The notes under the pieces are model-generated. The model searched no databases. It had not been told where the DNA came from and saw only the letters and a list, made by a program, of their open reading frames with translations. Below, piece after piece: positions 1,587 through 19,064 of a stretch of DNA of 32,000 nucleotides (the stretch's first letter is position 1; each line of letters starts with the position of its first letter). This stretch comes from Vibrio alginolyticus NBRC 15630 = ATCC 17749 (lineage in GTDB: Bacteria; Pseudomonadota; Gammaproteobacteria; Enterobacterales; Vibrionaceae), in the NCBI RefSeq assembly GCF_000354175.2, contig NC_022349.1, forward strand, positions 630,001 through 662,000, written 5' to 3'. A program made the translations under genes and the position numbers.

Positions 1587-1617
1587 TAGGTACATTTTGA
1601 CTAAACACTCAATGAGC

Positions 1618-1651
1618 CGGCTGAGACAAAATGTCTCAACCGGTTTTTTTA
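1618..1651 (+). terminator. Rho-independent terminator after the DUF3305/3306 pair
   Basis: Stem CCGGCTGAGAC / GTCTCAACCGG (with one bulge) followed by a T7 run. Confidence 0.7.
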
Positions 1652-1674
1652 TCCCTACTATTTGTCAGTAAAAT

Positions 1675-1700
1675 TGATAACCTATTGATTTTCAGTTGAT
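1675..1700 (+). promoter_or_regulatory. Three direct TTGAT repeats at 10-11 bp spacing (candidate activator/architectural protein sites)
   Basis: TTGAT occurs at 1675, 1685 and 1696. The TTGG of the sigma54 -24 element follows at 1707, keeping the same phasing. Confidence 0.3.
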
Positions 1701-1707
1701 ATTTTAT

Positions 1708-1723
1708 TGGCATGACACTTGCT
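1708..1723 (+). promoter_or_regulatory. Sigma54 (-24/-12) promoter candidate for the FDH operon
   Basis: TGGCATGACACTTGCT compared with the consensus TGGCACG-N4-TTGCW. GG and GC are in the exact 10-nt register. The motif lies about 175 nt upstream of the 1898 ATG. Confidence 0.55.
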
Positions 1724-1897
1724 ATTTGTTGCTCAATACCAATCTGGTTGAAGTTAGTACGGACGCACTGCGTAGTATTCATCGCCTATAGATGGCGGAA
1801 TAAGAATTCTCATTGATAAGTTAATCAGCAGAATCTCCGGCGCTAACTACACTAAGAGATGGAAAAGACTATCCATGTTCATAAATGGAATTGAGCA

Positions 1898-3559
1898 ATG
1901 CTGAAACAATTATTAGAACAAGCAACTTCCAATAACGGTAAAGCGAGGCTGTACGCTTTCGAAAATACCGTAGAGTTGACCAATCTTATTCCACCAACCG
2001 TAAGCTATGAAAGCGGCGGTAATACTTTGATTGTGGGCCCAACAGCAATCATCGAAAGTGCGGCAGCGCAATTGTCGCAAATGAACAGCCTAACGCTGCT
2101 TTCTACCGATGGCGAAAAGGGCACAAATCCCGAGCTTTATTACGCCAATTCGGTTCAGGTTTCAGGGTTCTTAGGTACGTTTGAAGTTCTGATTGAAAAT
2201 CATGGTTCGACCAACAATCTTGCCAAGGTCGCGATCAATAGCGATTGTTTCGATATCGTACTCGATCTTTGCCTTAACAGCTGCATGTCGGAAGAAGTCC
2301 CAGTACCGGGCTACTACCCAGTAGGTCGTGGCTATCCGAAACTGGCTGAAGCGTTGGAAGAGATTCCAACCTTAATGGGGACGTTCGATAAACCGAAATT
2401 CTTCCGTTTAGATACCGATTTATGTGCACACAGCTCTCGTGGCGTAAAAGGTTGCGAACGGTGTGTGGATGCTTGTCCGGCAGGGGCACTATCGAGTGAA
2501 GGCAGCGACAAAACGGGCCATCGCATCGAGATCAACCCATACCTATGTCAAGGCGTGGGTACTTGTGCTACAGCGTGTCCGACAGAAGCAATTCATTACG
2601 CACTGCCAAACCCTGAAGATACGCAAAAGTTTATTGAACGTACGCTCGCCAACTATGAGCAAGCGGGTGGTTTAGATCCTATCGTATTGATTTGCAGTTC
2701 TCGCCACGAGAGCTACAACGTGATGGCACTAAAAGCACTGCCAGATAATGTGATTCCAATTGTGGTGGAAGAACTGCCTTCGGTTGGTATTGATACTTGG
2801 TTCGCCGCGCTTGTGAATGGTGCTACTCAGGTGCTGTTTGCGGCTTCACGTTTTATGCCTCAAACCATTATTCGTGTGCTTAATAGCGAAGTAGGTATTG
2901 CTCAAGAGCTGCTCGGTCAGCTTGGTATCGCCAAAGAAACCATCGACATTCTGTATCTAGAGTCACTACGTGAAGGTGCTCCGACACTTTGTACTGAGTC
3001 TTTTGATTTGGCATTAGGTGATTTGCAAGGTAACAAACGTCAGCGTCTATTTACGGCGTTGGATGCGTTGTCGTCTTCTCGTATTCCAGTCGAGAACATT
3101 GTTGAGCTGCCAGCAAACGCGCCTTACGGCAATGTTTCTTGTGAGAGCAAAGATTGTACGTTGTGTATGAGCTGTGTGGCAGTTTGTCCTACACGTGCAC
3201 TTCATACCGATGGTCAATCTCCGTCGCTTAAATTCGTCGAGCAAGACTGCATTCAATGTGGGCTGTGCGAGAAAGCGTGTCCAGAGAAAGTGCTGACGCT
3301 TACGCCTCGTATGAACTGGGTGAAAAAAGAGCGCCAAAAAGCGGTTGTGATTCACGAAGAGAAAGCAGCGGAATGTATTCGCTGTCATAAGCCATTCGCA
3401 CCTCAGTCTATGATCGACATGCTACAAAACAAGTTACGCGGTCACTCTCATTTCTCTGATGAAGCGGCGATCAATCGTATCGCGATGTGTGAAGACTGCC
3501 GTGTGATCGACATGTTTGAGTCGATGGCAGAAGACCCAATGAAACAACTGAAATACTAG
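1898..3559 (+). CDS. Poly-[4Fe-4S] ferredoxin-domain protein of the FDH cluster
   Basis: 553 aa with four CxxCxxCxxxCP motifs (CERCVDACP, CQGVGTCATACP, CTLCMSCVAVCP, CIQCGLCEKACP) plus a C-terminal CxxC...CxxC. Confidence 0.8.
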   Translation: MLKQLLEQATSNNGKARLYAFENTVELTNLIPPTVSYESGGNTLIVGPTAIIESAAAQLSQMNSLTLLSTDGEKGTNPELYYANSVQVSGFLGTFEVLIENHGSTNNLAKVAINSDCFDIVLDLCLNSCMSEEVPVPGYYPVGRGYPKLAEALEEIPTLMGTFDKPKFFRLDTDLCAHSSRGVKGCERCVDACPAGALSSEGSDKTGHRIEINPYLCQGVGTCATACPTEAIHYALPNPEDTQKFIERTLANYEQAGGLDPIVLICSSRHESYNVMALKALPDNVIPIVVEELPSVGIDTWFAALVNGATQVLFAASRFMPQTIIRVLNSEVGIAQELLGQLGIAKETIDILYLESLREGAPTLCTESFDLALGDLQGNKRQRLFTALDALSSSRIPVENIVELPANAPYGNVSCESKDCTLCMSCVAVCPTRALHTDGQSPSLKFVEQDCIQCGLCEKACPEKVLTLTPRMNWVKKERQKAVVIHEEKAAECIRCHKPFAPQSMIDMLQNKLRGHSHFSDEAAINRIAMCEDCRVIDMFESMAEDPMKQLKY

Positions 3560-3568
3560 GAGCTCGCA

Positions 3569-4195
3569 GTGGACACACAACAAGAACAAACACTGAGAAC
3601 AGACATTTATCTCGTTTTATCCGCACTTTTTCGTAGTGCGCCTAGTGATGAAATGCTGGCGTTCCTGAAATCGCTAGAAATTGAGCCGTCTGAGAGCGCG
3701 ATGCAAAAAGCTTGGCTCGCACTGCAACAAGCCGCGAACGAAGCGCAGCGAGAAGCGTTAGAAGAAGAATATCAAGATCTGTTTATTGGCATTGGACGTG
3801 GTGAAGTTGTGCCATTCGGATCTTGGCATCGTACTGGCTCGATGATGGAAAAGCCGTTAGCGGAAATTCGTCGCGATTTGGATCTTTTAGGCATCGAACG
3901 AGAAGAGAACGTGAAAGAGCCTGAAGACCATATTTCTGCACTGTGCGAAGTGATGGCAATGCTGACAGGTGAAGAGGAAGAACTTCAACAAGCGGTGTTT
4001 AACAAACACATTGCCCCTTGGTTCCAATCTTTTACGCGCCAACTAGAGAGCGCAGAAAGCGTGAACTTCTACAAGCCAGCTGCACAGCTTTGCGATGCGT
4101 TTTTAACGTTAGAGCAAGTGCGCTTTAGCGTGAACACCAAAAGCAGTAAGAACAAATTAAAAATTGATGTGAAAAACGTCACTGATTACGAGTAA
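3569..4195 (+). CDS. TorD/DmsD-family redox-enzyme maturation chaperone (FDH-specific)
   Basis: 208 aa. GTG start with AGGAG 6-7 nt upstream. Carries an EEEYQDLFIG-type motif typical of TorD-family chaperones and sits immediately before the Tat-dependent molybdoenzyme. Confidence 0.7.
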   Translation: MDTQQEQTLRTDIYLVLSALFRSAPSDEMLAFLKSLEIEPSESAMQKAWLALQQAANEAQREALEEEYQDLFIGIGRGEVVPFGSWHRTGSMMEKPLAEIRRDLDLLGIEREENVKEPEDHISALCEVMAMLTGEEEELQQAVFNKHIAPWFQSFTRQLESAESVNFYKPAAQLCDAFLTLEQVRFSVNTKSSKNKLKIDVKNVTDYE

Positions 4196-4265
4196 TCGAG
4201 CAGTACTTGGTCATATCGATAGAGAGGCATGAGTCTCCAAAGATCTACCGTAAGGTAAGGAAGCA

Positions 4266-4469
4266 ATGATGAAAGATAATAAAGAAATAAACACAAGCCG
4301 TAGGGATCTCCTAAAAGGCTTCACAACCGCTGCCGTTGCCGGTGCTGTTGTTGCGGGAACCACGAAAGTGGCCGTTGCTTCAGAAACGGTTGAGCCTTCT
4401 GAAAACGACGTGAAGAAGAAAGGGTATCGTGAAACTCAACACATTCGCGATTACTACGACACACTTTAG
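4266..4469 (+). CDS. Small twin-arginine-signal protein (FDH-region Tat target)
   Basis: 67 aa with SRRDLLKGFTTAAVAGAVVAG, a canonical Tat signal. AAGGA ribosome-binding site. It ends 10 nt before fdhA. Confidence 0.75.
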   Translation: MMKDNKEINTSRRDLLKGFTTAAVAGAVVAGTTKVAVASETVEPSENDVKKKGYRETQHIRDYYDTL

Positions 4470-4479
4470 GAGATAACGG

Positions 4480-7335
4480 ATGAAACTTGTCAAACGCTCC
4501 GACAGTGTGAGCAAAGAAACGAACCAGCTTGGCGTATCTCGTCGTGCATTCATGAAAAACACTTCGCTTGCCGCTGGTGGCGCAGTGGTTGGTGCTAGTC
4601 TATTTGCACCGGGAATGATGAAAAAAGCGCAAGCAAAATCTGTCGATCCAGAAGCGAAAACAGAAATAAAACGTACTATCTGTTCTCACTGTTCAGTGGG
4701 TTGTGGTATTTACGCAGAAGTTCAAAATGGTGTTTGGACGGGTCAAGAGCCTGCATTTGACCACCCATTTAACGCCGGTGGTCACTGTGCAAAAGGCGCA
4801 GCACTGCGTGAACATGGCCACGGTGAGCGTCGTCTAAAATACCCAATGAAGCTTGAAAACGGTAAGTGGAAAAAGCTTTCTTGGGATCAAGCGATCGAAG
4901 AAATCGGTAACAAGGTGATGGACATCCGCAAAGAGTCTGGCCCTGATTCGGTTTACTTCTTGGGAAGCGCAAAGCACAGCAACGAACAAGCGTACTTGTT
5001 CCGCAAAATGGCATCACTTTGGGGCACTAACAACGTTGACCACCAAGCGCGTATTTGTCACTCAACAACCGTGGCGGGTGTAGCAAACACTTGGGGTTAC
5101 GGTGCGATGACCAACTCTTTCAATGACATGCACAACTGTAAGTCGATGCTGTTCATTGGTTCAAACCCAGCTGAAGCACACCCAGTGGCGATGCAGCACA
5201 TTCTGATCGCGAAAGAGAAGAACAACTGTAAGATCGTCGTAGCGGATCCTCGTCGTACACGTACGGCAGCAAAATCGGATCACTATGTATCACTTCGTCC
5301 AGGTTCTGACGTAGCATTTATTTGGGGTGTGTTGTGGCACATCTTCGAAAACCAATGGGAAGATAAAGAGTTCATCCGTCAACGAGTATTCGGTATGGAT
5401 GAAATCCGTGCTGAAGTAGCGAAGTGGACGCCAGCAGAAGTAGAGCGCGTAACAGGCGTAAGCGAAGAAGACGTTTACCAAACAGCAAAACTGCTCTCTG
5501 AAAATCGCCCAGGCTGCATTGTTTGGTGTATGGGTGGTACTCAGCATACTACTGGCAACAACAACACACGTGCTTACTGTGTGCTTGAGCTAGCGCTTGG
5601 TAACATTGGTAAATCAGGCGGCGGCGCAAACATCTTCCGTGGTCACGATAACGTACAAGGCGCAACCGACCTTGGCGTACTTTCTGACACGTTACCTGGC
5701 TACTACGGCCTTTCTGAAGGCGCTTGGCGTCATTGGTCAAAAGTGTGGGAAATCGATTACGAATGGATCAAAGGTCGTTTCGATGACAACGCTTATAGCG
5801 GTCAGAAACCAATGCACAGTGCAGGTATCCCAGTATCTCGTTGGGTCGATGGTGTACTGGAAAACAAAGACAACATTCGTCAACGCGAAAACATCCGTGC
5901 AATGTTCTACTGGGGACACGCAGTGAACTCTCAAACACGTGGTGTTGAGATGAAAAAAGCGATGCAGAAGTTGGACATGATGGTGATTGTGGACCCATAC
6001 CCAACGGTTGCTGCGGTAATGAACGACCGTACCGACGGCGTTTACCTGCTTCCTGCAACAACACAGTTTGAAACACACGGCAGCGTTACCGCATCTAACC
6101 GCTCTCTACAATGGCGTGATCAGGTGATTGAACCTTTGTTTGAATCAAAACCAGACCACGAAATCATGTATCTGCTTTCGAAGAAACTGGGCTATTCAGA
6201 TCTTCTGTTCAAAAACATCCGTGTTGAAAATAACCAGCCGGTGATTGAAGACCTAACGCGTGAATTCAACAAAGGCATGTGGACGATTGGTTACACAGGC
6301 CAAAGCCCTGAGCGTTTGAAAGCGCACCAACAAAACTGGCATACGTTCCACAAAACCACATTGGAAGCGGAAGGTGGCCCTGTCAACGGTGAAACCTACG
6401 GTCTACCTTGGCCATGCTGGGGCACACCAGAAATGAAACACCCAGGTACACACATTCTGTACGATACGTCTAAGACGGTTGCAGAAGGTGGCGGTAACTT
6501 CCGTACGCGCTTTGGTGTGGAATTCGAAGGCAAAAGCCTTCTTGCAGAAGACAGTTATTCGAAAGGCTGTGAGATCAAAGACGGTTACCCAGAGTTCACT
6601 GATAAGTTATTGAAACAACTTGGTTGGTGGGACGACCTAACTGCTGAAGAGAAAGTGGCAGCAGAGGGTAAAAACTGGAAGACTGACCTTTCTGGCGGTA
6701 TTCAGCGTGTCGCGATCAAGCACGGTTGTATTCCATTTGGTAACGCGAAAGCGCGTGCGATTGTTTGGACGTTCCCAGACCGTGTGCCACTGCATCGTGA
6801 ACCACTTTACACACCACGTCGTGACCTTGTAACGGATTACCCAACTTGGGAAGACAAAGATGCAATCTTCCGTGTTCCTACGTTGTATAAATCCATTCAA
6901 GAGCAAGACAAATCGGGCGAGTACCCAATCGTTCTGACTTCTGGCCGTCTGGTTGAATACGAAGGTGGTGGTGAAGAGACGCGTTCAAACCCTTGGCTTG
7001 CCGAGCTTCAACAAGAAATGTTTGTTGAAGTGAACCCGAAAGACGCGAACGATCTTGGCTTCAGAGATGGTGATGATGTTTGGGTTGAAGGTGCAGAGAA
7101 GGGGCGAATCAAGGTGAAAGCGATGGTAACACGTCGTGTGAAACCTGGCTTGGCGTTCATTCCGTTCCACTTTGGCGGTAAGTTCGAAGGTGAAGACCTA
7201 CGTCCTAAATACCCAGAAGGTACACAGCCTTACGTTGTTGGCGAATCGGCCAACACGGCAACCACTTACGGTTACGACCCGGTTACCTTGATGCAGGAAA
7301 CCAAAGTAACCCTATGTAACATTCGTAAAGCCTAA
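4480..7335 (+). CDS. fdhA: Formate dehydrogenase alpha (catalytic Mo/W-bis-MGD) subunit, Cys-type, Tat-exported
   Basis: 951 aa. Tat signal SRRAFMKNTSLAAGGAVVGA...AQA, N-terminal [4Fe-4S] motif CSHCSVGCG, and the HQARICHSTTVAG active-site block with Cys193 (TGT 5056-5058) where FdnG/FdoG carry Sec. Confidence 0.93.
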   Translation: MKLVKRSDSVSKETNQLGVSRRAFMKNTSLAAGGAVVGASLFAPGMMKKAQAKSVDPEAKTEIKRTICSHCSVGCGIYAEVQNGVWTGQEPAFDHPFNAGGHCAKGAALREHGHGERRLKYPMKLENGKWKKLSWDQAIEEIGNKVMDIRKESGPDSVYFLGSAKHSNEQAYLFRKMASLWGTNNVDHQARICHSTTVAGVANTWGYGAMTNSFNDMHNCKSMLFIGSNPAEAHPVAMQHILIAKEKNNCKIVVADPRRTRTAAKSDHYVSLRPGSDVAFIWGVLWHIFENQWEDKEFIRQRVFGMDEIRAEVAKWTPAEVERVTGVSEEDVYQTAKLLSENRPGCIVWCMGGTQHTTGNNNTRAYCVLELALGNIGKSGGGANIFRGHDNVQGATDLGVLSDTLPGYYGLSEGAWRHWSKVWEIDYEWIKGRFDDNAYSGQKPMHSAGIPVSRWVDGVLENKDNIRQRENIRAMFYWGHAVNSQTRGVEMKKAMQKLDMMVIVDPYPTVAAVMNDRTDGVYLLPATTQFETHGSVTASNRSLQWRDQVIEPLFESKPDHEIMYLLSKKLGYSDLLFKNIRVENNQPVIEDLTREFNKGMWTIGYTGQSPERLKAHQQNWHTFHKTTLEAEGGPVNGETYGLPWPCWGTPEMKHPGTHILYDTSKTVAEGGGNFRTRFGVEFEGKSLLAEDSYSKGCEIKDGYPEFTDKLLKQLGWWDDLTAEEKVAAEGKNWKTDLSGGIQRVAIKHGCIPFGNAKARAIVWTFPDRVPLHREPLYTPRRDLVTDYPTWEDKDAIFRVPTLYKSIQEQDKSGEYPIVLTSGRLVEYEGGGEETRSNPWLAELQQEMFVEVNPKDANDLGFRDGDDVWVEGAEKGRIKVKAMVTRRVKPGLAFIPFHFGGKFEGEDLRPKYPEGTQPYVVGESANTATTYGYDPVTLMQETKVTLCNIRKA

Positions 7336-7346
7336 GGAGTCTGACA

Positions 7347-7955
7347 ATGGCACGAATGAAATTTCTATGTGACACCAAACGCTGTATCGAGTGTAACGGC
7401 TGTGTTACTGCATGTAAGAACGAAAACGACGATGCTCTTGAATGGGGCATTCAACGTCGCCGCGTGGTAACACTAAACGATGGTGAAGCCGGTGAAAACT
7501 CCATCTCTGTTGCTTGTATGCACTGTACCGATGCGCCTTGTATGGCAGTTTGTCCAGCAGACTGTTTCGAACATACCGAAGACGGCATCGTTCTTCACAA
7601 TAAAGATCTGTGTATCGGTTGTGGTTACTGTTTGTTTGCTTGTCCGTTTGGCGCACCTCAGTTCCCTAAACAAGAAGCGTTTGGCGAACGTGGCAAAATG
7701 GATAAATGTACTTTCTGCGCGGGCGGCCCAGAAACAGAGCCAGGCTCTGAGGAAGAACGTCAAAAATACGGTGCGAACCGTATCGCAGAAGGCAAGTTAC
7801 CGATGTGTGCATCGCTTTGTTCAACCAAAGCACTGCTTGCGGGTGACGCAGAGAAAGTCTCTGACATTTTCCGTCAACGTGTGGTAGAACGCGGCGCGAA
7901 AAACGCAGGTTGGACAGACGGAAACGATCTTTCTTACGATGCGACGAAAAGCTAA
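7347..7955 (+). CDS. fdhB: Formate dehydrogenase beta (iron-sulfur) subunit
   Basis: 202 aa with multiple 4Fe-4S motifs (CIECNGCVTAC, CMHCTDAPCMAVCP, CIGCGYCLFACP, CTFC). AAGGAG ribosome-binding site. Confidence 0.9.
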   Translation: MARMKFLCDTKRCIECNGCVTACKNENDDALEWGIQRRRVVTLNDGEAGENSISVACMHCTDAPCMAVCPADCFEHTEDGIVLHNKDLCIGCGYCLFACPFGAPQFPKQEAFGERGKMDKCTFCAGGPETEPGSEEERQKYGANRIAEGKLPMCASLCSTKALLAGDAEKVSDIFRQRVVERGAKNAGWTDGNDLSYDATKS

Positions 7956-7969
7956 GTAAGGAGAGGCAC

Positions 7970-9022
7970 ATGTTAAACACGCTTAAACGTGCGTCTCTAG
8001 CAATGCTGTCAATGATGACAGCATTGCTGCTGACTTTCGCAATGCCTGCTTCAGCAGAGGAACAATCTTCTAAAGTTATTCAACAGGAGATCACGCAACT
8101 CGCCGGGGCAGACTATTGGCGCGAAGTCAGAGAGGGGCAAGAAGGTTATACCACGTCTAAATCGCCAGAACATGGCGTATTAATCAGTAAACCTGGTGAA
8201 ACTTGGTACATTCTAAAAGAGAAATGGATGTCTCCTGCTGGTGCTGTCGCGATTTTCGGCAGTATCGCGATGGTTATCATGGCTTACGTATTTGTTGGCC
8301 CTTTGATGCTAAGTAAGCCTCGTACAGGCAAAAAGATGAAGCGTTGGTCTCGTTTAGACCGCGCGCTTCACTGGAGTATGGCGTTTACATTCTTAACGTT
8401 GGCATTCAGTGGTTTGATGCTGGTTTACGGTAAGCACTTCTTAAAACCGTATGTTCCTACTGAGTTCTGGGGCTTTATCGTCATGTTGGCGAAGCAGTAC
8501 CACAATTACATGGGGCCATTGTTCTTCATTTTGCTGATGCTCGTGCTCTTTAAATGGTGGCGCAAGTCGATTCCAAACATGACTGATGTTCGTTGGTTCA
8601 TGAAAATGGGCGGTATGGTTGGTAAACACAAAGGCACACATCCGTCAGCTGGTTTCTCAAACGGTGGCGAGAAGGCAATCTATTGGTTGTTGATCTTCTT
8701 TGGTGCTATCGCGGCAGTGAGTGGCTTAGTTCTGGACTTTCCTATCTTTGGCCAAACTCGCCGTGACATGGAGCTTTCTAACTTAGTTCATGCGATTTCG
8801 GCACTGATTCTAATCTGTGGCTTTATCTTCCACATCTATATTGGTCTATTCGGTATGGAAGGTGCGTTAGAAGGCATGGTGACTGGTGAAGTTGATGAAA
8901 CATGGGCGAAAGAGCATCACGATCTTTGGTATGAAGAAGTGAAATCCAAAGAAGCAATGGGCGAAACAGATACGGCACAAACGGAAGTAAAAGGAGCGAA
9001 AGCGAATGAACAAACCTCATAA
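7970..9022 (+). CDS. fdhC: Formate dehydrogenase gamma (cytochrome b, membrane) subunit
   Basis: Start moved to ATG 7970, which has AAGGAGAGG 6 nt upstream. The track's 7910 start would overlap fdhB by 46 nt. The protein has a signal/anchor sequence (MLNTLKRASLAMLSMMTALLLTFAMPASA), four or more TM helices, and His residues typical of FdnI-like cytochrome b. Confidence 0.85.
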   Translation: MLNTLKRASLAMLSMMTALLLTFAMPASAEEQSSKVIQQEITQLAGADYWREVREGQEGYTTSKSPEHGVLISKPGETWYILKEKWMSPAGAVAIFGSIAMVIMAYVFVGPLMLSKPRTGKKMKRWSRLDRALHWSMAFTFLTLAFSGLMLVYGKHFLKPYVPTEFWGFIVMLAKQYHNYMGPLFFILLMLVLFKWWRKSIPNMTDVRWFMKMGGMVGKHKGTHPSAGFSNGGEKAIYWLLIFFGAIAAVSGLVLDFPIFGQTRRDMELSNLVHAISALILICGFIFHIYIGLFGMEGALEGMVTGEVDETWAKEHHDLWYEEVKSKEAMGETDTAQTEVKGAKANEQTS

Positions 9023-9422
9023 CGGGATTTGGGTTGCGTACATCCTGAGCTGTCTGACCCCGTTTACGTTTCTGATCTCAGGCGTTATCGCAATTATCTA
9101 TGCGGGTTACCGATTAGATAAGGGAGAAGACAGTGACGTAGTGATTTCTCATTACTACGGTTTAATTCGTACCTTCTTTCTCTACCTGACGTTTTTTGTT
9201 GTGTTGATCGTCACCGTCGCGACTTCTAACGGTGTACTCGTTGGCGTGAGTGATTATTGGTTGCATAGTACTTTGCTTGAAACCATCGCTTACTTTATTC
9301 CTTGGGTAGGGATGGTGTTTGCTGCATTAGCCATCTTGGTGTGGTTTATGCGAATGTTTCAAGGGATGCAGCAACTGCTCAATAACCAACCACACAGACC
9401 ATCGACAGGTCCAAACCTTTAA
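9006..9422 (+). CDS. Small polytopic membrane protein, unknown function, overlapping the fdhC 3' end
   Basis: 138 aa with 3-4 hydrophobic helices. Its ATG lies 17 nt inside fdhC, and the gene is followed by the operon terminator. Confidence 0.55.
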   Translation: MNKPHNGIWVAYILSCLTPFTFLISGVIAIIYAGYRLDKGEDSDVVISHYYGLIRTFFLYLTFFVVLIVTVATSNGVLVGVSDYWLHSTLLETIAYFIPWVGMVFAALAILVWFMRMFQGMQQLLNNQPHRPSTGPNL

Positions 9423-9440
9423 TCAGTATTCTTTAAGCAA

Positions 9441-9467
9441 AACCGCCGTAATAGGCGGTTTTTTTTG
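9441..9467 (+). terminator. Rho-independent terminator closing the FDH operon
   Basis: ACCGCC / GGCGGT stem followed by a T8 run. Confidence 0.8.
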
Positions 9468-9846: not shown

Positions 9847-12800
9847 ATGATCCCTCAATTCGTCATTCCTATCACGAATCGCTTTGGCGAAAGTTATCAC
9901 TTCTCTGGTCAGTTACTTACTAGCGGCGAACCTAAAACATTCGTGACCAAACAAGAGGCAATAGAGTTTCTTGAGAGCTTTGGTGAGCTTGACCTTCGCT
10001 CTGTCGAGGACTTGTTCTATGCGATTGGTCAATTCAAGCCAAACATACCTGACGGTGAGCTTACTTCCCAACACTATAATTCAACGTTTGCCAATGCTTT
10101 GGTGAACGGTGACTTGCATGTCGCTCGAATTGTACCTACCGGCGAAAACTACGCACTCTCGTCAGCGGTTACGCCTCCACCGACTCAAAATACCGTCAAT
10201 GCAAAACCATCGAAGGGAAAGGGGAAGTCGAATAAAAAGAGTGGCAGAAGTGCCGCATCCGACAAGCCTCAGCAACAAAGCAGCGAAAAACATGAGAAAG
10301 CCGGTGATCCTGTATCACTTGTGACGGGTGAAGAAATTCTCGAACTCTATGATATCGAGCTACAACAAGGTACTACTTGGCAGCGTACTTACCGCTCTTC
10401 GCAGTCGGATGTAAATCATGGAATGGGCTTTGGTTGGCGACATGCATTTCAGTTTGAATTACGCGAAAAGACGAACGAGAAAGACAATGTTATCGCTTGG
10501 GAGTTTGTTGACGATAAGGCCGATATCACAGAATTTGAGCCAGTAGATATTGGAGCAACAAGTTATCAAATATACGCTGGTGCGAGCTGTTATTTCCTGA
10601 GCTCAACAACTCGGATTGTAACGCTCGCGAATGGGCATCAATATCGATTTGAACAGAAAGATGATCGTTGGGTTGTTAAACAAGTCAGAAATGGCACGTT
10701 TTCAACGTTTCAACTGCAGTATTCTCGAAACCATCGATTGATCGAGATTGCATACAACAAGCGTCCGGTTCTTGAATGTCAATATGATAAGCAAGGACGC
10801 CTTGTAGAACTGCTAAATGCAAAGTCCCAAAAAGTTCTGACAACTTATACCTATGATGAGCACGATGATTTGGTCAGTGCAACTAATCATTTAGGCTTAA
10901 AGGAACAGTATCAATACCGCGGGCATTTAATTGTTAAACGTGTACGACCAACTGGCTTTACTCATTATTTTGAATGGGATGGCGAAGGTGCAAAAGCGAA
11001 ATGCATCAGAAACGTTGGGGACGCAGGAATTTATGACTATCGCTTCCATTATCAAGGAAATCACTCTTCTTATTCTGACTCGTTAGATCATCAATGGTCT
11101 TTCTTGCATGACGAGCAGGGTAACTTACTCGAGAAAATAAGCCCCACAGGTAAAACTTGGCGATGGCAATATGATGAATTAGGGCGAAAAGCGCAAGCTA
11201 TCTATCCTGATCAGTCAACGGTCAATTATCAATATAATCAGCATGGTCAATTAGTTTCTAAGTTTCATTCCTCTGGCAAAGAAATTCAATATGGTTATGA
11301 CGGCTTAGGTAAGTTAGTTAAAACGGTTTCACCTGACGGGGATATCGAGAAGGCTTACTACAATAGCCTCGGTCAAAGAGTTTGGGATACCGACCAGTTT
11401 GGCTGTGTCACGGAATATGATTACGATAAACACGGTCAAGTCGTCAAAAAAGAGTCTGAAGATGGTAAGAAAAGTCAGTGGTGGTGGGATGAACAACAAA
11501 GACTTATCGCGAATGAAATAGACGGTACATTACTTCGTTATAGCTACAATGAAGAAGATTTAGTGAATGGCGTTGCTTATCCCGATGGGTGTATTGCTCA
11601 ACTCGCTTATGATCAATTTGGCAGGCGTACATCAGTTCGTTATTTTAACGACGAAGACAAAGTCGGTTATAGCGAAGAATATTCTTACGATGAGCACAGC
11701 CGTGTTGCTCAGATTCGAACGCCAGCAGGCATTACCTCATATCAATGGGGAGCACTCGCGCAACAAGAAGCAGTCATCTTTCCCGATGGCAGCCATATTT
11801 CTTACGAATACGATCAACAACGTAACCTGACTAAATTAGTTCGGAGTGACGGCTTAGAGTTCGAATTCCTGTATGACGATGAAGGCCAGCTGTCAGGAAC
11901 TGTCGGGTTTGATAATCTACAAAGCCAATTTGATTATGATCATATGGGACGGATCCATCGTAAGCAAGTCGCCGATAGGACTGTGCTGTATCGCTATGAC
12001 GCTGCGGGTTATCTCAAGCACGTCAAAGCAGGAAATGGTAGCAGTATTGTAGAGAACCACTTCAACTATACGCTTGGTGGTCGACTTACTTTCGCATCCA
12101 ATCGCCATCAAACATTGCAATACCAACACTCTTCATTCGGGCATTTAACAAAGCGCATTCAAGGTCAGTTTGAGATAGCGCAGGAGTTTAACAGAGTTGG
12201 CCAACGCGTATCTCAGGTACTGCCAGATAATACGGAGCTGAACTTCTCTTACGATCGATATGGGCGTTTTTCAGCGATTCGGTTTGGAAACCTAGATTTA
12301 CCTCAAATCAAATTTCATTACGATGAAATGGGACGAGTTTCCCAAATTGAAACGGCATATTTTAATGAGCGCATCATTTATGATGGTGTTGGTCGTTTGG
12401 TCGAACAACATTGGCCTGATAGAGAGAAAAAGTACGTTTACAATGCGCAAAACCGTATTTCATCAATCATTGATAATACGGCAGGAGCAACACACTATCA
12501 GTACGATGCCTTAGGGCAACTGAAACGAGTCAATGCTTCCGGAGAAGTGACTAAGTTTGAATACGATAGTTTTGGCAATCCTACTTTGCCATCTTCAGAG
12601 GTATTCGCTGATCGTATTGAAGTACACGATGGTGTCCGGTTCAAATATGACGCGCAAGGAAACCAGACAAAACGTGAGGGGCAAGGACACGTTCAGACTC
12701 GCGTATTTGATGCGTTAAATCAGCTCATTGAAGTTCACACCGACGATGGCATCAGTCAATATGAATATGATGCATTAGGGCGCAGGACGAAGAAAATTAC

Positions 12801-14226
12801 ACAACAAGGCGTTACGGAGTTCTTGTGGGAAGGGGAACGTTTAATTGGTGAACGCTCTTCATGCGCTTTCCGCTGGTACCTATATCAACCAGAAACCTAC
12901 ACGCCAGTGGCACTGCTAGAAAATGACGTTATTTATTGGTACCAGTGCGATCAAGTTGGTAAACCAGAGCGACTGATCGATTGCGAGGGGAATGTTGTAT
13001 GGAGTGCCAGCTACGATGCTCATGGCTTTGCTCATGTACATATTGAAAAAGTAGTAAATCCACTGCGTTTTCAAGGGCAGTACTTCGATCAAGAAACCGA
13101 CTTACACTACAACCTCGCTCGGTATTACGATCCTAAGCTAGGACGCTTTATCCAACAAGATCCGATATCTATTGCTGGTGGCATTAACCATTACCAATAT
13201 GCAGTCAATCCTATCCAGTGGATTGATCCAACAGGTTTCCTTTGTGAAGAAGGGTTAAAACGCTTGGGTCAAATGTTGGCAGCGTATCAGGCGCAAAGCG
13301 ATGTCCCCCAAGAGGTTTGCGATCAGATTTTAGAGGCAGCAAAAGAATCATCCGTCGGAGAAGATGGCGTTCGCTCGCAAGTCAAAATCCGAAAACCCAA
13401 AGGTAAAAATCATATTCGATATGAATACGATTTAGACCATATTGATTGCGAGAAAAATGAAATTACTTTTTATCGTCATATCAATCATTCAGATGGCAGC
13501 AGGCACGAAGTTCAGTATGTTGTTGGGATTGAGGAATTTGTAAATGCGCATGTTTTTGACTCAGAGAAAGTTGGCGGGGAAGAAGGTTGCACGATCTTTA
13601 CTGAAGATCTTGTGCTGAATAAAGCAGAGTATAAAGAAAACTCTGAACTCAATACGAGTGATTATGAGCTAACAGAAAGAAACAAAGAAAAAATTGACGA
13701 ATGCTTAAAAGAGCGTCAAGAGGCAATCGACGCTCGAGCTGGCGAAGAGGGATATAACGCTCAAATTGGTAATATTAACCAACAGTCTGCAAAAATAGGT
13801 GAGTTGGCCGCGGATGACTTTGTCCGGAGTAAACGTCCTAATGCTAAGCTGCTTCATCCCAAAGATATTGGAACCTCAATTTCGAAGCCGGGCGACTTTG
13901 ATATGGTTTACCTCTCAGATGATCCTGAAGAAATCATCATCGTTGAGGCTAAGGGGGGCAGCAGCCCGCTCGGCAGTCGTAAAATTGGCAATGAAGCATA
14001 TCAGCAAGGGACAAGTAAATATGCGGCGGAAATAGTTAAGTTAATGTCAGAGAATAAAGAAGGAACGACTGAAAAATTAGCTGCCGACGAAATCCAATTT
14101 GCAGCTTTCTCCGGCATACCTATTCGATATATACATACTCAAGCAAGCATCCCAGAAAGTGGAAAAGCCTCGGACGTAAAACTAGAAGTGGCAGAATTTA
14201 AAATTGATTCAGAAGGACTAAAGTAA
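9847..14226 (+). CDS. Rhs/YD-repeat polymorphic toxin (PAAR-less) with a C-terminal PD-(D/E)xK nuclease-like payload
   Basis: 1459 aa with about 20 YD repeats (e.g. QYDKQGRLVEL, YGYDGLGKLVKT, YEYDALGRRTKK). The shell opens with DPVSLVTGEE (aa 154) and closes with RYYDPKLGRFIQQDP...PIQWIDPTGF. The only in-frame start is ATG 9847, because TAA lies at 9820. Confidence 0.93.
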   Translation: MIPQFVIPITNRFGESYHFSGQLLTSGEPKTFVTKQEAIEFLESFGELDLRSVEDLFYAIGQFKPNIPDGELTSQHYNSTFANALVNGDLHVARIVPTGENYALSSAVTPPPTQNTVNAKPSKGKGKSNKKSGRSAASDKPQQQSSEKHEKAGDPVSLVTGEEILELYDIELQQGTTWQRTYRSSQSDVNHGMGFGWRHAFQFELREKTNEKDNVIAWEFVDDKADITEFEPVDIGATSYQIYAGASCYFLSSTTRIVTLANGHQYRFEQKDDRWVVKQVRNGTFSTFQLQYSRNHRLIEIAYNKRPVLECQYDKQGRLVELLNAKSQKVLTTYTYDEHDDLVSATNHLGLKEQYQYRGHLIVKRVRPTGFTHYFEWDGEGAKAKCIRNVGDAGIYDYRFHYQGNHSSYSDSLDHQWSFLHDEQGNLLEKISPTGKTWRWQYDELGRKAQAIYPDQSTVNYQYNQHGQLVSKFHSSGKEIQYGYDGLGKLVKTVSPDGDIEKAYYNSLGQRVWDTDQFGCVTEYDYDKHGQVVKKESEDGKKSQWWWDEQQRLIANEIDGTLLRYSYNEEDLVNGVAYPDGCIAQLAYDQFGRRTSVRYFNDEDKVGYSEEYSYDEHSRVAQIRTPAGITSYQWGALAQQEAVIFPDGSHISYEYDQQRNLTKLVRSDGLEFEFLYDDEGQLSGTVGFDNLQSQFDYDHMGRIHRKQVADRTVLYRYDAAGYLKHVKAGNGSSIVENHFNYTLGGRLTFASNRHQTLQYQHSSFGHLTKRIQGQFEIAQEFNRVGQRVSQVLPDNTELNFSYDRYGRFSAIRFGNLDLPQIKFHYDEMGRVSQIETAYFNERIIYDGVGRLVEQHWPDREKKYVYNAQNRISSIIDNTAGATHYQYDALGQLKRVNASGEVTKFEYDSFGNPTLPSSEVFADRIEVHDGVRFKYDAQGNQTKREGQGHVQTRVFDALNQLIEVHTDDGISQYEYDALGRRTKKITQQGVTEFLWEGERLIGERSSCAFRWYLYQPETYTPVALLENDVIYWYQCDQVGKPERLIDCEGNVVWSASYDAHGFAHVHIEKVVNPLRFQGQYFDQETDLHYNLARYYDPKLGRFIQQDPISIAGGINHYQYAVNPIQWIDPTGFLCEEGLKRLGQMLAAYQAQSDVPQEVCDQILEAAKESSVGEDGVRSQVKIRKPKGKNHIRYEYDLDHIDCEKNEITFYRHINHSDGSRHEVQYVVGIEEFVNAHVFDSEKVGGEEGCTIFTEDLVLNKAEYKENSELNTSDYELTERNKEKIDECLKERQEAIDARAGEEGYNAQIGNINQQSAKIGELAADDFVRSKRPNAKLLHPKDIGTSISKPGDFDMVYLSDDPEEIIIVEAKGGSSPLGSRKIGNEAYQQGTSKYAAEIVKLMSENKEGTTEKLAADEIQFAAFSGIPIRYIHTQASIPESGKASDVKLEVAEFKIDSEGLK
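13210..13239 (+). other. Rhs C-terminal autoproteolysis motif (PxxxxDPxGF)
   Basis: PIQWIDPTGF (aa 1122-1131), preceded by the YDPKLGRF aspartyl-protease block. The payload is predicted to start at L1132. Confidence 0.8.
13240..14223 (+). other. Rhs C-terminal toxin region (aa 1132-1459): unassigned ~178 aa plus PD-(D/E)xK-like core
   Basis: Candidate catalytic residues are E1319 (helix GELAADDF), D1350/D1352 (PGDFDMVYL) and E1367-A-K1369 (IIIVEAKGG). The 15-17 residue spacing is typical of the restriction-endonuclease fold. Confidence 0.6.
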
Positions 14227-14228
14227 AA

Positions 14229-15128
14229 ATGCAAAGCAAAGAATCGGTCAAAGTTGTAGAGCGCAAAGCAAATCCTGAACTTGACACTCAAGCCATTGTG
14301 AATCGGAAAAAATTTATAAACCGGGTCTTAGATAACAGAAAAGAAGGTCTTAAAATCAGGCGGGAAAACCTGGTCAGTCTTGGTGATTTTGCCATTGACC
14401 AGGTTCGCTGGTATACCTGGTTTCAAGCCTCACATGAAGATGAGCAAATATGTACCTTGCGTCTTTATGAAACTTCGCTAATGGGCGCATGTTATCATCG
14501 GCTCGCTATGTATCAGAAAGAACCATTAAGTATCCAGATACTCGGCTATCCAGAAGTGACATGGGATGGGGAAGGTATTTTAAAAACAGGCTTCATTTGT
14601 CCTTCAATGTGGCTAGATGCGTATTTTACTTCGGTGATTGTGCGTGATAAACCTAGCATGGACGTATTGGCGAACTTTCCGATTTCTTTGATGAGACAAA
14701 GCTCTACTAAAGCGGGTGAATTGTCTTACATGTTAGTAGATGTCATCCAGTCGTTTCATAATCGCACATCGGACTATCCTGATAAGCTCGTCGCAGCAAT
14801 GGACGCAGCGGTAGCCCAAGGGGATAACTGGGCGTTGGAAATTGCGATGGGGCTCCTAGAAACCTTCGCAGCGCTCACTACTAACATTGGTTATGATTTT
14901 GAGGAAGTGCTCGTTAAAAACCTACAGTTTCAAGAGAAATATCATCTTAGAGAATTGGGACCAGATAGAGTAGGGATCCGCACGTTCATTAATTTCCCTC
15001 TGCTTGGTATGGCATGTATGTGGTATGACAAAGGTAACCGTTTATCTGTTGAAACTGGTTGGCTCCCCCCCTATCTCGTTGAAGGACGTTGGCTAGAAGA
15101 AGTAAAAGCCGGGAAGATCACTCGATAA
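14229..15128 (+). CDS. Cognate immunity protein candidate for the Rhs toxin
   Basis: 299 aa. Its ATG is 2 nt after the rhs stop. It has no signal peptide or TM segment, shares the low GC of rhs, and is followed by a terminator. Confidence 0.7.
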   Translation: MQSKESVKVVERKANPELDTQAIVNRKKFINRVLDNRKEGLKIRRENLVSLGDFAIDQVRWYTWFQASHEDEQICTLRLYETSLMGACYHRLAMYQKEPLSIQILGYPEVTWDGEGILKTGFICPSMWLDAYFTSVIVRDKPSMDVLANFPISLMRQSSTKAGELSYMLVDVIQSFHNRTSDYPDKLVAAMDAAVAQGDNWALEIAMGLLETFAALTTNIGYDFEEVLVKNLQFQEKYHLRELGPDRVGIRTFINFPLLGMACMWYDKGNRLSVETGWLPPYLVEGRWLEEVKAGKITR

Positions 15129-15155: not shown

Positions 15156-15184
15156 AAGCCACCTCTCATGAGGTGGCTTTTACG
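15156..15184 (+). terminator. Rho-independent terminator after the immunity gene
   Basis: AAGCCACCTC / GAGGTGGCTT stem with a 4-nt loop followed by TTT. Confidence 0.7.
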
Positions 15185-15372: not shown

Positions 15373-15470
15373 TCTGATAGACGCTCTATAAATTAAGTTC
15401 ACCAAATTGGTGATGAGCCTAACTTTGATGCACAGGATAAGTGCGCTACAGATCAACGGAGACAATCATA

Positions 15471-16691
15471 ATGAGTGTAACTGCCAATCAGGTACACGGC
15501 GCTGTACAAACTCTCACGCAAAGTTCCGACACACTTTTCTTACTACTTGGCGCAATCATGGTTTTTTTGATGCATGCTGGTTTTGCTTTTCTTGAAGTAG
15601 GAACCGTGCGCCAAAAGAACCAAGTTAATGCTTTAGTTAAAATCTTGGCCGATTTCGGTATATCCGCCATCGCGTATTTTTTCATTGGATACTGGGTCGC
15701 TTATGGCGGCACCTTCTTCGCTGATGCTGAGACATTATCTCAAGGCAATGGTTACGAGTTAGTGAAGTTCTTTTTCTTGCTGACCTTCGCTGCAGCGATT
15801 CCCGCTATTGTTTCAGGTGGTATCGCAGAACGAGCTCGTTTTTATCCGATTTTAATCGCAACATTTTTCACTGTCGGTATTGTATACCCACTATTTGAAG
15901 GAATGATCTGGAACGGAAACTTTGGCGTTCAATCTTGGTTTGAAAATAGCTTTGGTTATGGCTTCCACGATTTTGCAGGTTCAGTCGTTGTGCATGGTGT
16001 TGGCGGCTGGATAGCGCTTGTTGCCGTCGTGTTTTTGGGCATGAGAAAAGGCAGAGTTCGAGCAGGAAAGCACACCAGCTTTGCACCTTCGAATATTCCG
16101 TTTTTGGCTTTGGGAGCTTGGGTCTTATGTGTGGGGTGGTTTGGCTTCAACGTCATGTCAGCTCAAACTGTGTCAGGCATAAGTGGCTTGGTGGCTATGA
16201 ACTCATTGATGGCAATGGTCGGGGGCATTGTCGCGTCACTGTTGGCTGGTAAGAATGACCCTGGCTTTATTCATAACGGCCCACTAGCTGGCTTGGTTGC
16301 TGTATGTGCGGGCTCAGACTTAATGCATCCTATCGGTGCTTTAGTGACAGGTGCGATTGCTGGCGTGCTATTTGTTTATCTTTTTACCCACCTACAAAAC
16401 AAAACCAAGATTGATGATGTGCTAGGTGTCTGGCCTTTACACGGTGTATGTGGCGCTTGGGGTGGTATTGCCGCTGGGATTTTTGGTCAAAGCGCATTGG
16501 GTGGGCTAGGTGGCGTGAGCATTATCGTTCAGCTTCTAGGAACGCTTTTGGGCCTTTCCATCGCAGTGCTTGGTGCACTTGTAGTCTACGGTGCGATTAA
16601 TACCAGTATGGGACTGAGGCTTTCAGAAGAAGACGAATTCAATGGCGCTGACCTAGCCATTCATAAAATATCTTCGACCAACGAGGATTGA
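15471..16691 (+). CDS. amtB: Ammonium transporter (Amt family)
   Basis: Start moved to ATG 15471 (MSVTANQ..., GGAGA ribosome-binding site). About 11 TM helices and Amt signatures (FLLLGAIMVFLMHAGFAFLEVG, DFAGSVVVHGVGG, GVWPLHGVCGAWGG). Confidence 0.9.
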   Translation: MSVTANQVHGAVQTLTQSSDTLFLLLGAIMVFLMHAGFAFLEVGTVRQKNQVNALVKILADFGISAIAYFFIGYWVAYGGTFFADAETLSQGNGYELVKFFFLLTFAAAIPAIVSGGIAERARFYPILIATFFTVGIVYPLFEGMIWNGNFGVQSWFENSFGYGFHDFAGSVVVHGVGGWIALVAVVFLGMRKGRVRAGKHTSFAPSNIPFLALGAWVLCVGWFGFNVMSAQTVSGISGLVAMNSLMAMVGGIVASLLAGKNDPGFIHNGPLAGLVAVCAGSDLMHPIGALVTGAIAGVLFVYLFTHLQNKTKIDDVLGVWPLHGVCGAWGGIAAGIFGQSALGGLGGVSIIVQLLGTLLGLSIAVLGALVVYGAINTSMGLRLSEEDEFNGADLAIHKISSTNED

Positions 16692-17015: not shown

Positions 17016-17747
17016 ATGAATTTCCCTTATAGAAATATTGTAGTACTTACTGGTGCAGGTATCTCGGCCGAATCTGGTATTCAAACATTTCGTGCGCAAG
17101 ATGGCCTATGGGAGAATCACCGTATCGAAGATGTAGCAACGCCTGAAGGGTTTGCTCGCGATCCGGACCTTGTTCAAGATTTTTACAACCAACGCCGCAA
17201 GAAACTTCAAGATAATGCGATAAAGCCTAATGCAGCGCATGAAGCATTGGGTCGTTTAGAGGCTGAGTTAGAAGGTAAAGTGACGGTCATCACTCAAAAT
17301 ATAGACAACCTTCACGAACGAGGCGGCAGTCAGAATGTGATTCACATGCATGGTGAGTTGCTCAAGGCCCGCTGTAGTGAATCTAACCAAGTAGTAGAGC
17401 ACAATGAGGACATTAAGACCGGCGAGCTTTGTCACTGTTGTCAGATCCCTTCACAAATGCGACCACATATTGTTTGGTTTGGTGAAATGCCATTGCGAAT
17501 GGGGGATATCTACGCGTCATTAGAAGAAGCAGATTTGTTTATTTCTATTGGGACTTCTGGCGTTGTGTATCCCGCAGCAGGTTTTGTTCATGATGCAAAA
17601 ATGCACGGCGCACATACCATTGAAATTAACCTAGAACCTAGTGCGGTAGAAAGTGAATTTGAGGAAAAACGCTACGGAAAAGCAAGCGTTGAGGTTCCAA
17701 AATTAGTTGACGAGATACTGGCTCTAGAAGGAAAAGAAAGAGCGTAA
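17016..17747 (+). CDS. cobB: NAD-dependent protein deacylase (Sir2 family, CobB)
   Basis: 243 aa with [25 protein letters not shown] and a Cys-rich Zn module. The size and motifs are typical of CobB. Confidence 0.9.
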
Positions 17748-17789
17748 TAACTTCAACAGGAAGAGTTTTTGTCTTGTCATTAAGAACAA

Positions 17790-17814
17790 AAAAGCGGCTC
17801 ATGAGCCGCTTTTT
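17790..17814. terminator. Bidirectional terminator between cobB and potD
   Basis: AAAAGCGGCTC / GAGCCGCTTTT, with A-run and T-run flanks on both strands. Confidence 0.75.
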
Positions 17815-17835
17815 CATATCTTTAAAACTAACGAA

Positions 17836-18873
17836 TTAGTTGTTCACTTTTAGCTTTTGGAAGTACTCATCGTACATTACGCTCGCTTCGCCAACTTCAT
17901 CTTGCCAAGTACCGCTGTCCATCACTTCTTGTGGTGGGAAGATGCTTGGATCATTAGCAAATTCTTTCGGTAGCAGATCGTGTGCCGTTTTAACTGGCGT
18001 AGGATAACCAATCTCAAGTGCAATCTTAGCTGCGTTCTCAGGGCGCAGTAAGAAGTCAATCATCTTATGAGCCGCATCAACGTTCTTCGCACCAGCTGGA
18101 ATTGCTAGGCTGTCCATCCAGAAGATAGTGCCTTTTTCTGGCCAGATGATGTCGATGTTCGCGCCTTCTTGACGAGCCATGTATGCAGAACCGTTCCAAA
18201 GCATGCCTAGTGAAACTTCACCCGCAAGGTAAGGGTTTGCAGGAAAATCTGAGTTAAATACTAATACGTTTGGCATTAGCTTTTTCAGTTCTTCGTAAGC
18301 GGCTTTGATTTCTTCTGGGTTAGTCGTGTTTGGTGAGTAACCAAGCTTAGTCAATGCAATGTGGAATACTTCGCGAGAATCATCCATCAGCATTAGTTGA
18401 CCTTCCCACTTGCTATCCCAGAAATCATCCCATTTAGAAACCGATGACTTGTCTAGCATGTCAGCATTGATACCAATACCGGTCGCACCCCAAATGTATG
18501 GGATAGAGTAGTTGTTGTTCGGATCGAACGGTTTGTTTAGGAAGTTAGTATCAAGATCGGCAAAATGAGATAATTTCTCTTTGTCGATCTGTTGTAGCAT
18601 GCCTTCTTTACGCATTTTAGAGACGAAATAGGTAGACGGTACTACCAAGTCGTAACCAGAACCTTGAGTTTTTAGTTTTGCATACATACTCTCGTTAGAT
18701 TCGTATGTAGAGTAAATAACTTTGATTCCAGTTTCTTTTGTAAAGTCTTCAAGAACTTCGTTTGGAATGTATTCCGACCAGTTGTAGAAATACAGTTCTT
18801 GATCAGCAGCCATTGCAGGGGTAGCGATGAGCGTCGCTGCACATAGAGCGCTTGCGTAGAATTTACTTTTCAT
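17836..18873 (-). CDS. potD: Spermidine/putrescine ABC transporter periplasmic binding protein (PotD paralog 1)
   Basis: Start moved to ATG 18873 (MKSKFYASALCAATLIATPAMA signal peptide). Strong PotD-like sequence throughout. Confidence 0.88.
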   Translation of the reverse strand: MKSKFYASALCAATLIATPAMAADQELYFYNWSEYIPNEVLEDFTKETGIKVIYSTYESNESMYAKLKTQGSGYDLVVPSTYFVSKMRKEGMLQQIDKEKLSHFADLDTNFLNKPFDPNNNYSIPYIWGATGIGINADMLDKSSVSKWDDFWDSKWEGQLMLMDDSREVFHIALTKLGYSPNTTNPEEIKAAYEELKKLMPNVLVFNSDFPANPYLAGEVSLGMLWNGSAYMARQEGANIDIIWPEKGTIFWMDSLAIPAGAKNVDAAHKMIDFLLRPENAAKIALEIGYPTPVKTAHDLLPKEFANDPSIFPPQEVMDSGTWQDEVGEASVMYDEYFQKLKVNN

Positions 18874-19064
18874 TTGTTTTCCGTTTTGTTTCGCGATTGG
18901 ACAAATCAATACTAGTTGGAGTTATCAATTTGAGCCAAATCGCAGTAAGCACAAATATGTTCATTTAGCTTGAATATCGTTGTCTCCTTGTTATGAGACG
19001 ATAAATCTATGATACCAAGACAAATAAACCTAGCAACGCGCGATTATATCAGCCTAAGACAAAA

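Follow-up and report, generated by a model that had tools for sequence, protein, structure and literature searches.

The closest described relative of the system examined here is RhsP (VP1517), or T2Rhs-Nuc, of Vibrio parahaemolyticus (PDB 8H8A, 8H8B, and 8H8C), an effector of type VI secretion system (T6SS) 2 with a downstream immunity gene. T2Rhs-Nuc of V. parahaemolyticus BB22OP and RIMD, and Va18287/Va18282 of V. alginolyticus 12G01, are reported as T6SS2-dependent antibacterial effector/immunity pairs. Papers citing Tang et al. (2022) attribute to that study the name VgrG2-interacting region (VIR) for a linker that is ordered in the RhsP structure, where the toxin is not, and they describe VIR-bearing tips as the large ones among Rhs toxins. 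We analyzed 32,000 nucleotides of V. alginolyticus NBRC 15630 = ATCC 17749 (NC_022349.1, positions 630,001 to 662,000; this whole stretch is “the window,” and nucleotide positions refer to it), which encode a 1459-aa Rhs protein and, immediately downstream, an Imm49-family protein. This pair is very likely the V. alginolyticus allele of RhsP/T2Rhs-Nuc, with a tip composed of VIR, linker, and a Tox-REase-6 nuclease that is neutralized by Imm49.

Two described nuclease toxin families are relevant to the tip. For Tox-REase-6, Zhang et al. (2012, PMC3482391) give a signature of E, D, ExK, Q, and Y, list RHS repeats and T6SS among the systems in which it is found, name Imm49 as the immunity partner, and record the family in Actinobacteria, Proteobacteria, and Bacteroidetes. 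For PoNe, Jana et al. (2019, PMC6688995) give the motif Kx3GExnGIDx2YxnYx3ExK and, as immunity protein, PoNi (DUF1911). A “Val-REase-6” and Imm49 pair of V. alginolyticus has also been presented, with the tip reported to be toxic in Escherichia coli and neutralized by Imm49 (Jiang et al. 2018, PMC6156420), in a paper that has since been retracted.

Architecture of the Rhs protein and its predicted released fragment

The product of open reading frame (ORF) 9847..14226 has the same sequence as AGV16404.1 (V. alginolyticus ATCC 17749). Its Pfam matches are to RHS_repeat (E=3.7e-68, nine RHS repeats), RHS (5.7e-14), and DUF6531 (1.2e-11), where the RHS core-end domain covers aa 1029-1062; the Pfam scan of the 1459-aa protein found no PAAR domain. 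The motifs ARYYDPKLGRF and QQDPISIAGG precede PIQWIDPTGF, and the protein thus combines a core lacking PAAR and an autoproteolysis motif at the C-terminal end of the Rhs region (RYYDP...QQDP...DPTGF), as is characteristic of the RhsP/T2Rhs-Nuc class. Autoproteolysis is predicted after F1131. This cleavage point has independent support, because chain B of PDB 8H8A, the RhsP C-terminal peptide, starts at the homologous LCEEGLKRL. The released fragment would comprise aa 1132-1459 (nt 13240-14223; 328 aa, 36.5 kDa, isoelectric point [pI] 4.9). An earlier reading of the letters and ORF translations (the sequence-only reading) had proposed a 328-aa fragment released after PIQWIDPTGF, and translation of 9847..14226 bears out those coordinates, as it does the positions of the strings quoted in that reading (CEKNEITFYRHINHSDGSRHE at 1201, ELTERNKEKIDECLKERQEAIDARAGEEG at 1274, PGDFD at 1348, and IIIVEAKGG at 1363) and of its residues E1319, D1350, D1352, E1367, and K1369.

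The first third of the fragment is a known module. In a phmmer search of the PDB, aa 1-106 of the fragment matched residues 1-106 of 8H8A chain B with ∼90% identity (E=2.1e-55), and the same residues also align with residues 1153-1258 of 8H8B (∼90% identity). The PDB title of the former is “C-terminal peptide from putative Rhs-family protein,” and both entries are V. parahaemolyticus RhsP (VP1517). The VIR thus lies directly after the cleavage site, as in the RhsP/T2Rhs-Nuc class. The matching 102 aa were named “PID” in the retracted PMC6156420, where PAAR2 binding was claimed, a claim that we set aside.

One group of homologs is similar to the fragment over its whole length, and a second group over the first third only. 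Members of the second group end in tips of the WHH/colicin-DNase, AHH, SHH, or another HNH type. When alleles are aligned, all sequences are similar up to FVNAHV and divergent beyond it. Full-length alleles belonging to one 90% cluster were compared with the window protein. Identity was 98% in aa 1-1131 and 88-98% in aa 1132-1237. Past aa 1237, alleles with AHH- or HNH-type tips retained 28-39% identity over the 39-residue linker and 0-19% beyond aa 1276, compared with 74-100% (linker), 83-92% (aa 1277-1389), and 47-71% (last 70 residues) in alleles of the REase type. The linker (aa 1238-1276) thus varies together with the toxin type, and the module breaks lie at the end of FVNAHV (aa 1237) and close to aa 1276. 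This allele pattern is that of classical C-terminal displacement, in which the VIR stays constant.

These breaks require the bipartite division put forward in the sequence-only reading, at aa 1309/1310, to be moved. Its upstream part had been treated as one unassigned module of 178 aa, possibly a second activity or an occluding pro-domain, and its terminal charged helix had been placed outside the toxin. Residues 1132-1237 are instead the VIR/“PID” segment common to alleles with unrelated tips, and the sequence from aa 1277 onward is kept in distant relatives from other phyla (R1290 in 106/110) and is part of the toxin domain. It is highly improbable that aa 1132-1309 form an independent second activity or an occluding pro-domain: the large size of the fragment (36.5 kDa) and a subthreshold PIN match at aa 1152-1260 (E=0.005, 17.5 bits versus a cutoff of 27.8) speak for it, but aa 1132-1237 also precede unrelated HNH-type toxins, so that they cannot be a pro-domain specific to one toxin, and correspond to the ordered RhsP linker solved in 8H8A. 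In addition, Cys and His residues in the region vary among close alleles, and AlphaFold shows, with low confidence, a β-meander that is not PIN-like. Nothing was found that supports either proposed function.

Two more specific candidates in this region were discarded. A metal-binding site in the Cys/His stretch (1201-1221) was rejected, as C to S and H to Y changes occur among close alleles. The PIN domain match (PF20698, described as the PIN domain of TPR-GreAB-C-PIN systems; aa 1152-1260, window 13300-13626) scored 15.0-17.5 bits (E=0.005-0.03) and was judged to be spurious, as it falls in the VIR region.

Several proteins from other genomes carry parts of the same cassette. Stand-alone 316-aa ORFs in other Vibrio genomes (P0004, P0005, and P0010) extend from a Met equivalent to aa 1143, within the VIR, through the REase-6 tip. 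Their sequences suggest orphan cassettes of VIR plus toxin, such as recombination within the VIR-coding DNA could produce. VP1519 and VP1520 of strain RIMD are said to be such orphan cassettes in the retracted PMC6156420. A 206-aa Vibrio protein (P0041) aligns with the toxin in two pieces, and its second half equals the translation of an alternative-frame ORF of the window, 13799..14035 (+1 frame, 78 aa). Because of this, it is a frameshifted and presumably dead orphan copy of the toxin cassette in another genome. Shewanella and Pseudoalteromonas carry toxin relatives with 39-46% identity (loci L003, L004, and L007 and protein P0045). P0045 has a diverged VIR-like junction (SIEQFVGGHVIDGK), in agreement with a published report that the VIR is rare outside Vibrio.

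A single predicted nuclease domain paired with Imm49

By conservation, aa 1277-1459 are one toxin domain, charged helix included. A HMMER search with aa 1238-1459 retrieved 276 representative clusters at E<=0.001, mostly at the extreme C terminus of 600-3300-aa proteins, with the remainder being short stand-alone or fragmentary ORFs. The composition of this set suggests that the domain occurs in many phyla. Relatives cover query positions ∼60 to 218 and often reach further N-terminally. A charged helix of the type K..LL..R....RD.L precedes the core in distant relatives, and it is therefore considered to be part of the toxin domain.

Residue conservation was counted over 117 aligned relatives, and a 30-sequence alignment agreed. 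D1352, E1367, K1369, Q1387, and G1388 are present in 117/117, Y1392 in 116/117, S1314 in 112/117, G1349 in 111/117, and E1319 in 95/117; R1290 is present in 106 of 110 relatives. D1350 is found in only 74/117, while D1352 is invariant, and the catalytic aspartate is therefore predicted to be D1352. Of the motif residues proposed in the sequence-only reading, D1352, E1367, and K1369 thus stand and D1350 does not. The last 70 residues of the toxin (aa 1390-1459, window 14014-14223) are less constant, with 47-71% identity among REase-6-type alleles of the same Rhs versus 83-92% in aa 1277-1389. From this pattern, they may decide which Imm49 variant neutralizes which toxin.

Structure prediction supports the PD-(D/E)xK signature that had been read in the C-terminal ∼150 aa. 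The AlphaFold model of the whole fragment has low confidence in the VIR and linker (low predicted local distance difference test score [pLDDT] to ∼aa 1261), as expected because the VIR packs against the cocoon, and from ∼aa 1262 has 10-residue block means of 57-95, mostly >80. A separate model of aa 1262-1459 has a pLDDT of 89.3 and a predicted template modeling score (pTM) of 0.86. Its order is helical hairpin, strand, strand (D1352 at its start), strand (E1367-A-K1369), small hairpin, helix, helix, strand, strand. The hairpin helices occupy model residues 16-35 and 42-68 (pLDDT mostly >90, block means 76-95), and the second of them carries E58 (=E1319). They are followed by strands 73-76, 92-97 (with D91 [=D1352] just before it), and 100-109 (with E106 and K108), and strands 165-172 and 185-191 come after the helices. 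The first helix after the small hairpin is capped by Q1387-G and contains Y1392. The model thus has the α-β-β-β-α-β core order of the PD-(D/E)xK superfamily with canonical catalytic positions: E1319 on a helix, D1352 where core strand 2 begins, and E1367-x-K1369 on core strand 3. Foldseek gave no match at E<=0.001, either for the whole-tip model against the PDB or for the trimmed domain model against the PDB and BFVD. The best named matches were weak (HindIII [E=0.048], HincII, DdmD, Shedu, viral “PD-(D/E)XK” proteins, and UL24); they are thematically consistent with the fold but are not proof of it.

Several lines of evidence favor assignment of the domain to Tox-REase-6. First, the residues of the published signature have counterparts conserved among the relatives: E1319, D1352, E1367, K1369, Q1387, and Y1392. 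Second, the domain takes the C-terminal position in polymorphic toxins, RHS proteins and others, as described for the family. Third, its immediate neighbor is Imm49. The imm49 start codon lies 2 nt after the rhs stop codon, and the product of ORF 14229..15128 has the same sequence as AGV16405.1 (“immunity 49 family protein”) and aligns with PF15575 over profile positions 4-217 of 217 (158.8 bits; cutoff, 30.1). The generality of this pairing was examined at 43 loci with toxin-domain relatives on one-genome-per-species contigs (Vibrio, Shewanella, Pseudoalteromonas, Tenacibaculum, Kordia, Nocardioides, Mycolicibacterium, Myxococcota, and others), from which the next ORF was extracted. It was Imm49 in 20 of the 36 loci scanned, the window included, and no other family recurred. 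The Imm49-paired loci came from Proteobacteria, Actinobacteria, Bacteroidota, and Myxococcota.

The sequence-only reading had mentioned PoNe as an example of such DNases on Vibrio T6SS effectors without assigning the tip to it, and this caution was justified. The elements present are K1316-I-G-E, G1349-D-F-D1352-M-V-Y, and I1363-x3-E1367-A-K, which come close to the PoNe motif but depart from its spacing at the first two elements and have Ile for Tyr at the third, four residues before E1367. The adjoining gene encodes Imm49 only, not a DUF1911 PoNi. That the tip is a PoNe-family DNase instead of Tox-REase-6 is unlikely. The family consensus, as we read it from the sequences of the relatives, [KR]x2GE ... 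GxFDx2[YW] ... [YF]x3ExK, is near the PoNe motif, and the BB22OP ortholog is labeled “Rhs repeats + PoNe” by NCBI CDD. Imm49 is, moreover, listed with both Tox-REase-1 and Tox-REase-6, and Tox-REase-1 also has PA2201/DUF1910+DUF1911 immunity (PMC3482391), which is of the PoNi type. Set against these points, besides the spacing and the immunity gene, are the invariant Q-G...Y element, which fits the REase-6 signature, and the statement of the PoNe authors that their motif is distinct from Tox-REase motifs. Because Imm49 is shared with a clade that also has PoNi-type immunity, PoNe and the present toxin family may be sister groups.

The substrate of a Tox-REase-6 nuclease is likely to be DNA, by analogy with PoNe and from the classical active site. 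The same fold acts on RNA in some cases, and tRNA or rRNA cutting by PD-(D/E)xK nucleases is known for some Burkholderia pseudomallei CdiA-CT toxins. We see a slim chance that the tip likewise cuts tRNA or rRNA and not DNA. Nothing in the sequence fixes the substrate, the literature search found no valid Tox-REase-6 biochemistry, and the conserved Arg-rich helical hairpin (R1290 and R1297) could bind structured nucleic acid. On the other side, the characterized PD-(D/E)xK toxins of Vibrio T6SS (PoNe) are reported to be DNases that leave RNA intact (PMC6688995), all ten REase toxin clades are stated to keep the classical REase active site (PMC3482391), and known CdiA-CT tRNase structures were not among the best 50 Foldseek matches in the PDB.

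Some observations weigh against a Tox-REase-6 DNase of the RhsP class. The toxin domain has no Pfam or NCBIfam match, as the whole tip or as each half, and no PDB match by sequence: the single-sequence search of the PDB matched only the VIR, and a 30-sequence family profile matched nothing for the toxin. A Pfam scan of 30 family members gave scattered weak matches to single members, one of them PDDEXK_1 at E=0.049. Membership in Tox-REase-6, which the sequence-only reading had held could not be settled by reading, is now favored by the signature, the genomic context with its Imm49 partner, and the published table, but not by alignment to the family seed. The 12G01 and BB22OP orthologs bear on the effector class and not on the type of tip. 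The only experiment found on a V. alginolyticus “REase-6”/Imm49 pair, like the PAAR2-binding claim for “PID,” is in the retracted PMC6156420.

Locus and neighborhood

The features of the locus are collected in Table 1. The rhs-imm49 pair lies outside the T6SS cluster, flanked on the left by a membrane-protein gene and on the right by an ammonium transporter gene (amt), which is the position described for RhsP homologs (PMC6156420, retracted). The GC content of the toxin tip (41.8%, versus 43.6% in the Rhs core) does not make it an outlier. A tblastn search found no orphan toxin or VIR fragments and no extra immunity genes elsewhere in the window.

Table 1. Positions in the window of the rhs-imm49 unit, its parts, and its flanks
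Feature	Position	Strand	Residues or size	Evidence
Conserved membrane protein, left flank of rhs-imm49	9006..9422	+	138 aa	ORF list and protein match
Terminator-like hairpin, 3' of upstream membrane-protein gene, left edge of unit	9439..9462	+		Consensus scan only
Rhs effector gene	9847..14226	+	1459 aa	Pfam RHS_repeat, RHS, DUF6531; without PAAR
PIQWIDPTGF, end of Rhs C-terminal autoproteolysis region	13210..13239	+	aa 1122-1131	Position confirmed
VIR/“PID” segment, ends at FVNAHV	13240..13557	+	aa 1132-1237	phmmer to 8H8A_B
Acidic variable linker, pI ∼4, 20% Glu	13558..13674	+	aa 1238-1276	Composition; low pLDDT to ∼aa 1261
Toxin-domain N-terminal helical hairpin; conserved R1290, R1297, S1314, G1318, E1319	13675..13833	+	aa 1277-1329	Model and conservation
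Catalytic core, Tox-REase-6-type PD-(D/E)xK	13834..14223	+	aa 1330-1459	Conservation and model
Key codon	13900-13902	+	D1352	
Key codon	13945-13947	+	E1367	
Key codon	13951-13953	+	K1369	
Key codon	14005-14007	+	Q1387	
Key codon	14020-14022	+	Y1392	
Cognate immunity gene, Imm49 family	14229..15128	+	299 aa	Pfam PF15575, E=2e-46
Terminator-like hairpin, 3' of immunity gene, right edge of unit	15156..15179	+		Consensus scan only
Ammonium transporter (amt), right flank of rhs-imm49	15441..16691	+		Pfam Ammonium_transp, E=1.2e-88

Upstream, window 506-9022 holds a formate-dehydrogenase-like or molybdoenzyme operon, which encodes DUF3305 and DUF3306 proteins, a 553-aa multi-Fe-S protein, a TorD/NarJ-type chaperone, a 951-aa molybdopterin oxidoreductase, a 4Fe-4S subunit, and a cytochrome b561-type subunit. 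The ORF of the cytochrome b subunit (7910-9022) has a called TTG start and a 46-nt overlap with the preceding gene; the gene probably begins instead with the ATG of codon 21 (MLNTLKRASLAML...). Downstream of amt, window 17016-18909 contains a Sir2-family (CobB-like) deacetylase gene and, on the opposite strand, a gene for a periplasmic solute-binding protein, with more minus-strand ORFs after it.

Proposed mechanism and comparison with described systems

We propose the following. (i) The Rhs cocoon would cleave itself after PIQWIDPTGF, a site supported by the motif and by the start of the PDB homolog, and so release the 328-aa fragment. (ii) The VIR, the first 106 aa of the fragment, would serve as a constant handle; in RhsP it is ordered against the cocoon and reportedly touches VgrG2, by which the effector is loaded onto T6SS2. 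Both secretion through T6SS2 and binding to VgrG2, reported for orthologs in other strains and for RhsP, would apply to the present protein by homology. Because the VIR is constant across alleles, it is probably also the homologous anchor by which toxin tips are swapped through recombination. (iii) The acidic linker would lead to a single Tox-REase-6-type PD-(D/E)xK nuclease domain. In this domain the hairpin carrying E1319 is predicted to pack on the β-sheet, where D1352 and E1367-x-K1369 would carry out metal-dependent cleavage of phosphodiester bonds, with DNA as the most likely substrate in the target cell. (iv) Imm49, whose pairing with this toxin family is seen across the loci scanned, would bind and neutralize the toxin in the producing cell and in kin cells.

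The literature search found no solved structure and no valid published biochemistry for Tox-REase-6. Because these are absent, as are a public profile and a significant match to a solved PD-(D/E)xK enzyme, Tox-REase-6 could be an atypical member of the superfamily, although we regard this as quite unlikely. The Arg-bearing hairpin (aa 1277-1329) might then bring about an atypical choice of substrate (structured RNA, for instance, or a particular form of DNA) or an unusual way of inhibition by Imm49, and the last 70 aa might set immunity specificity.

The toxin tip, the locus, and the architecture have already been described in kind, and they carry little weight as a discovery. As an example of C-terminal displacement among polymorphic toxins, the locus is a clean textbook one, with a 98%-identical cocoon, a constant VIR, and exchangeable tips past FVNAHV. 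Lacking a Tox-REase-6 model in Pfam and NCBIfam, annotation pipelines give the tip no name. The one experimental statement found on a REase-6/Imm49 pair of Vibrio stands in a retracted paper.

Among described systems, the closest is RhsP/T2Rhs-Nuc, with which the present protein shares the PAAR-less cocoon, the cleavage point, a VIR of ∼90% identity, and the chromosomal position. In strain RIMD, RhsP carries a WHH/HNH-fold DNase tip with SUKH immunity (VP1518), whereas here a PD-(D/E)xK-type tip extends over the 222 aa after the VIR and is paired with Imm49. The pair in the retracted study of Jiang et al. (2018, PMC6156420) has the same architecture of Rhs, “PID,” REase-6, and Imm49 at the same locus, but its experiments, given the retraction, cannot be relied upon. 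PoNe (PMC6688995), a PD-(D/E)xK toxin delivered by Vibrio T6SS, resembles the tip in its GE helix, hydrophobic-D-x-x-Y strand, and ExK strand, and by this analogy the tip probably works as PoNe does, as a Mg2+-dependent DNase. PoNe differs in its motif spacing and in its immunity (DUF1911 versus Imm49), and the invariant Q-G...Y of the present family lies outside the PoNe motif. With Tox-REase-6/Imm49 (PMC3482391), the tip shares the signature, the C-terminal place, the link to T6SS, the Imm49 neighbor, and a similar phyletic spread; the N-terminal helical hairpin with its conserved Arg, family-wide among the relatives analyzed here, lies outside the published signature.

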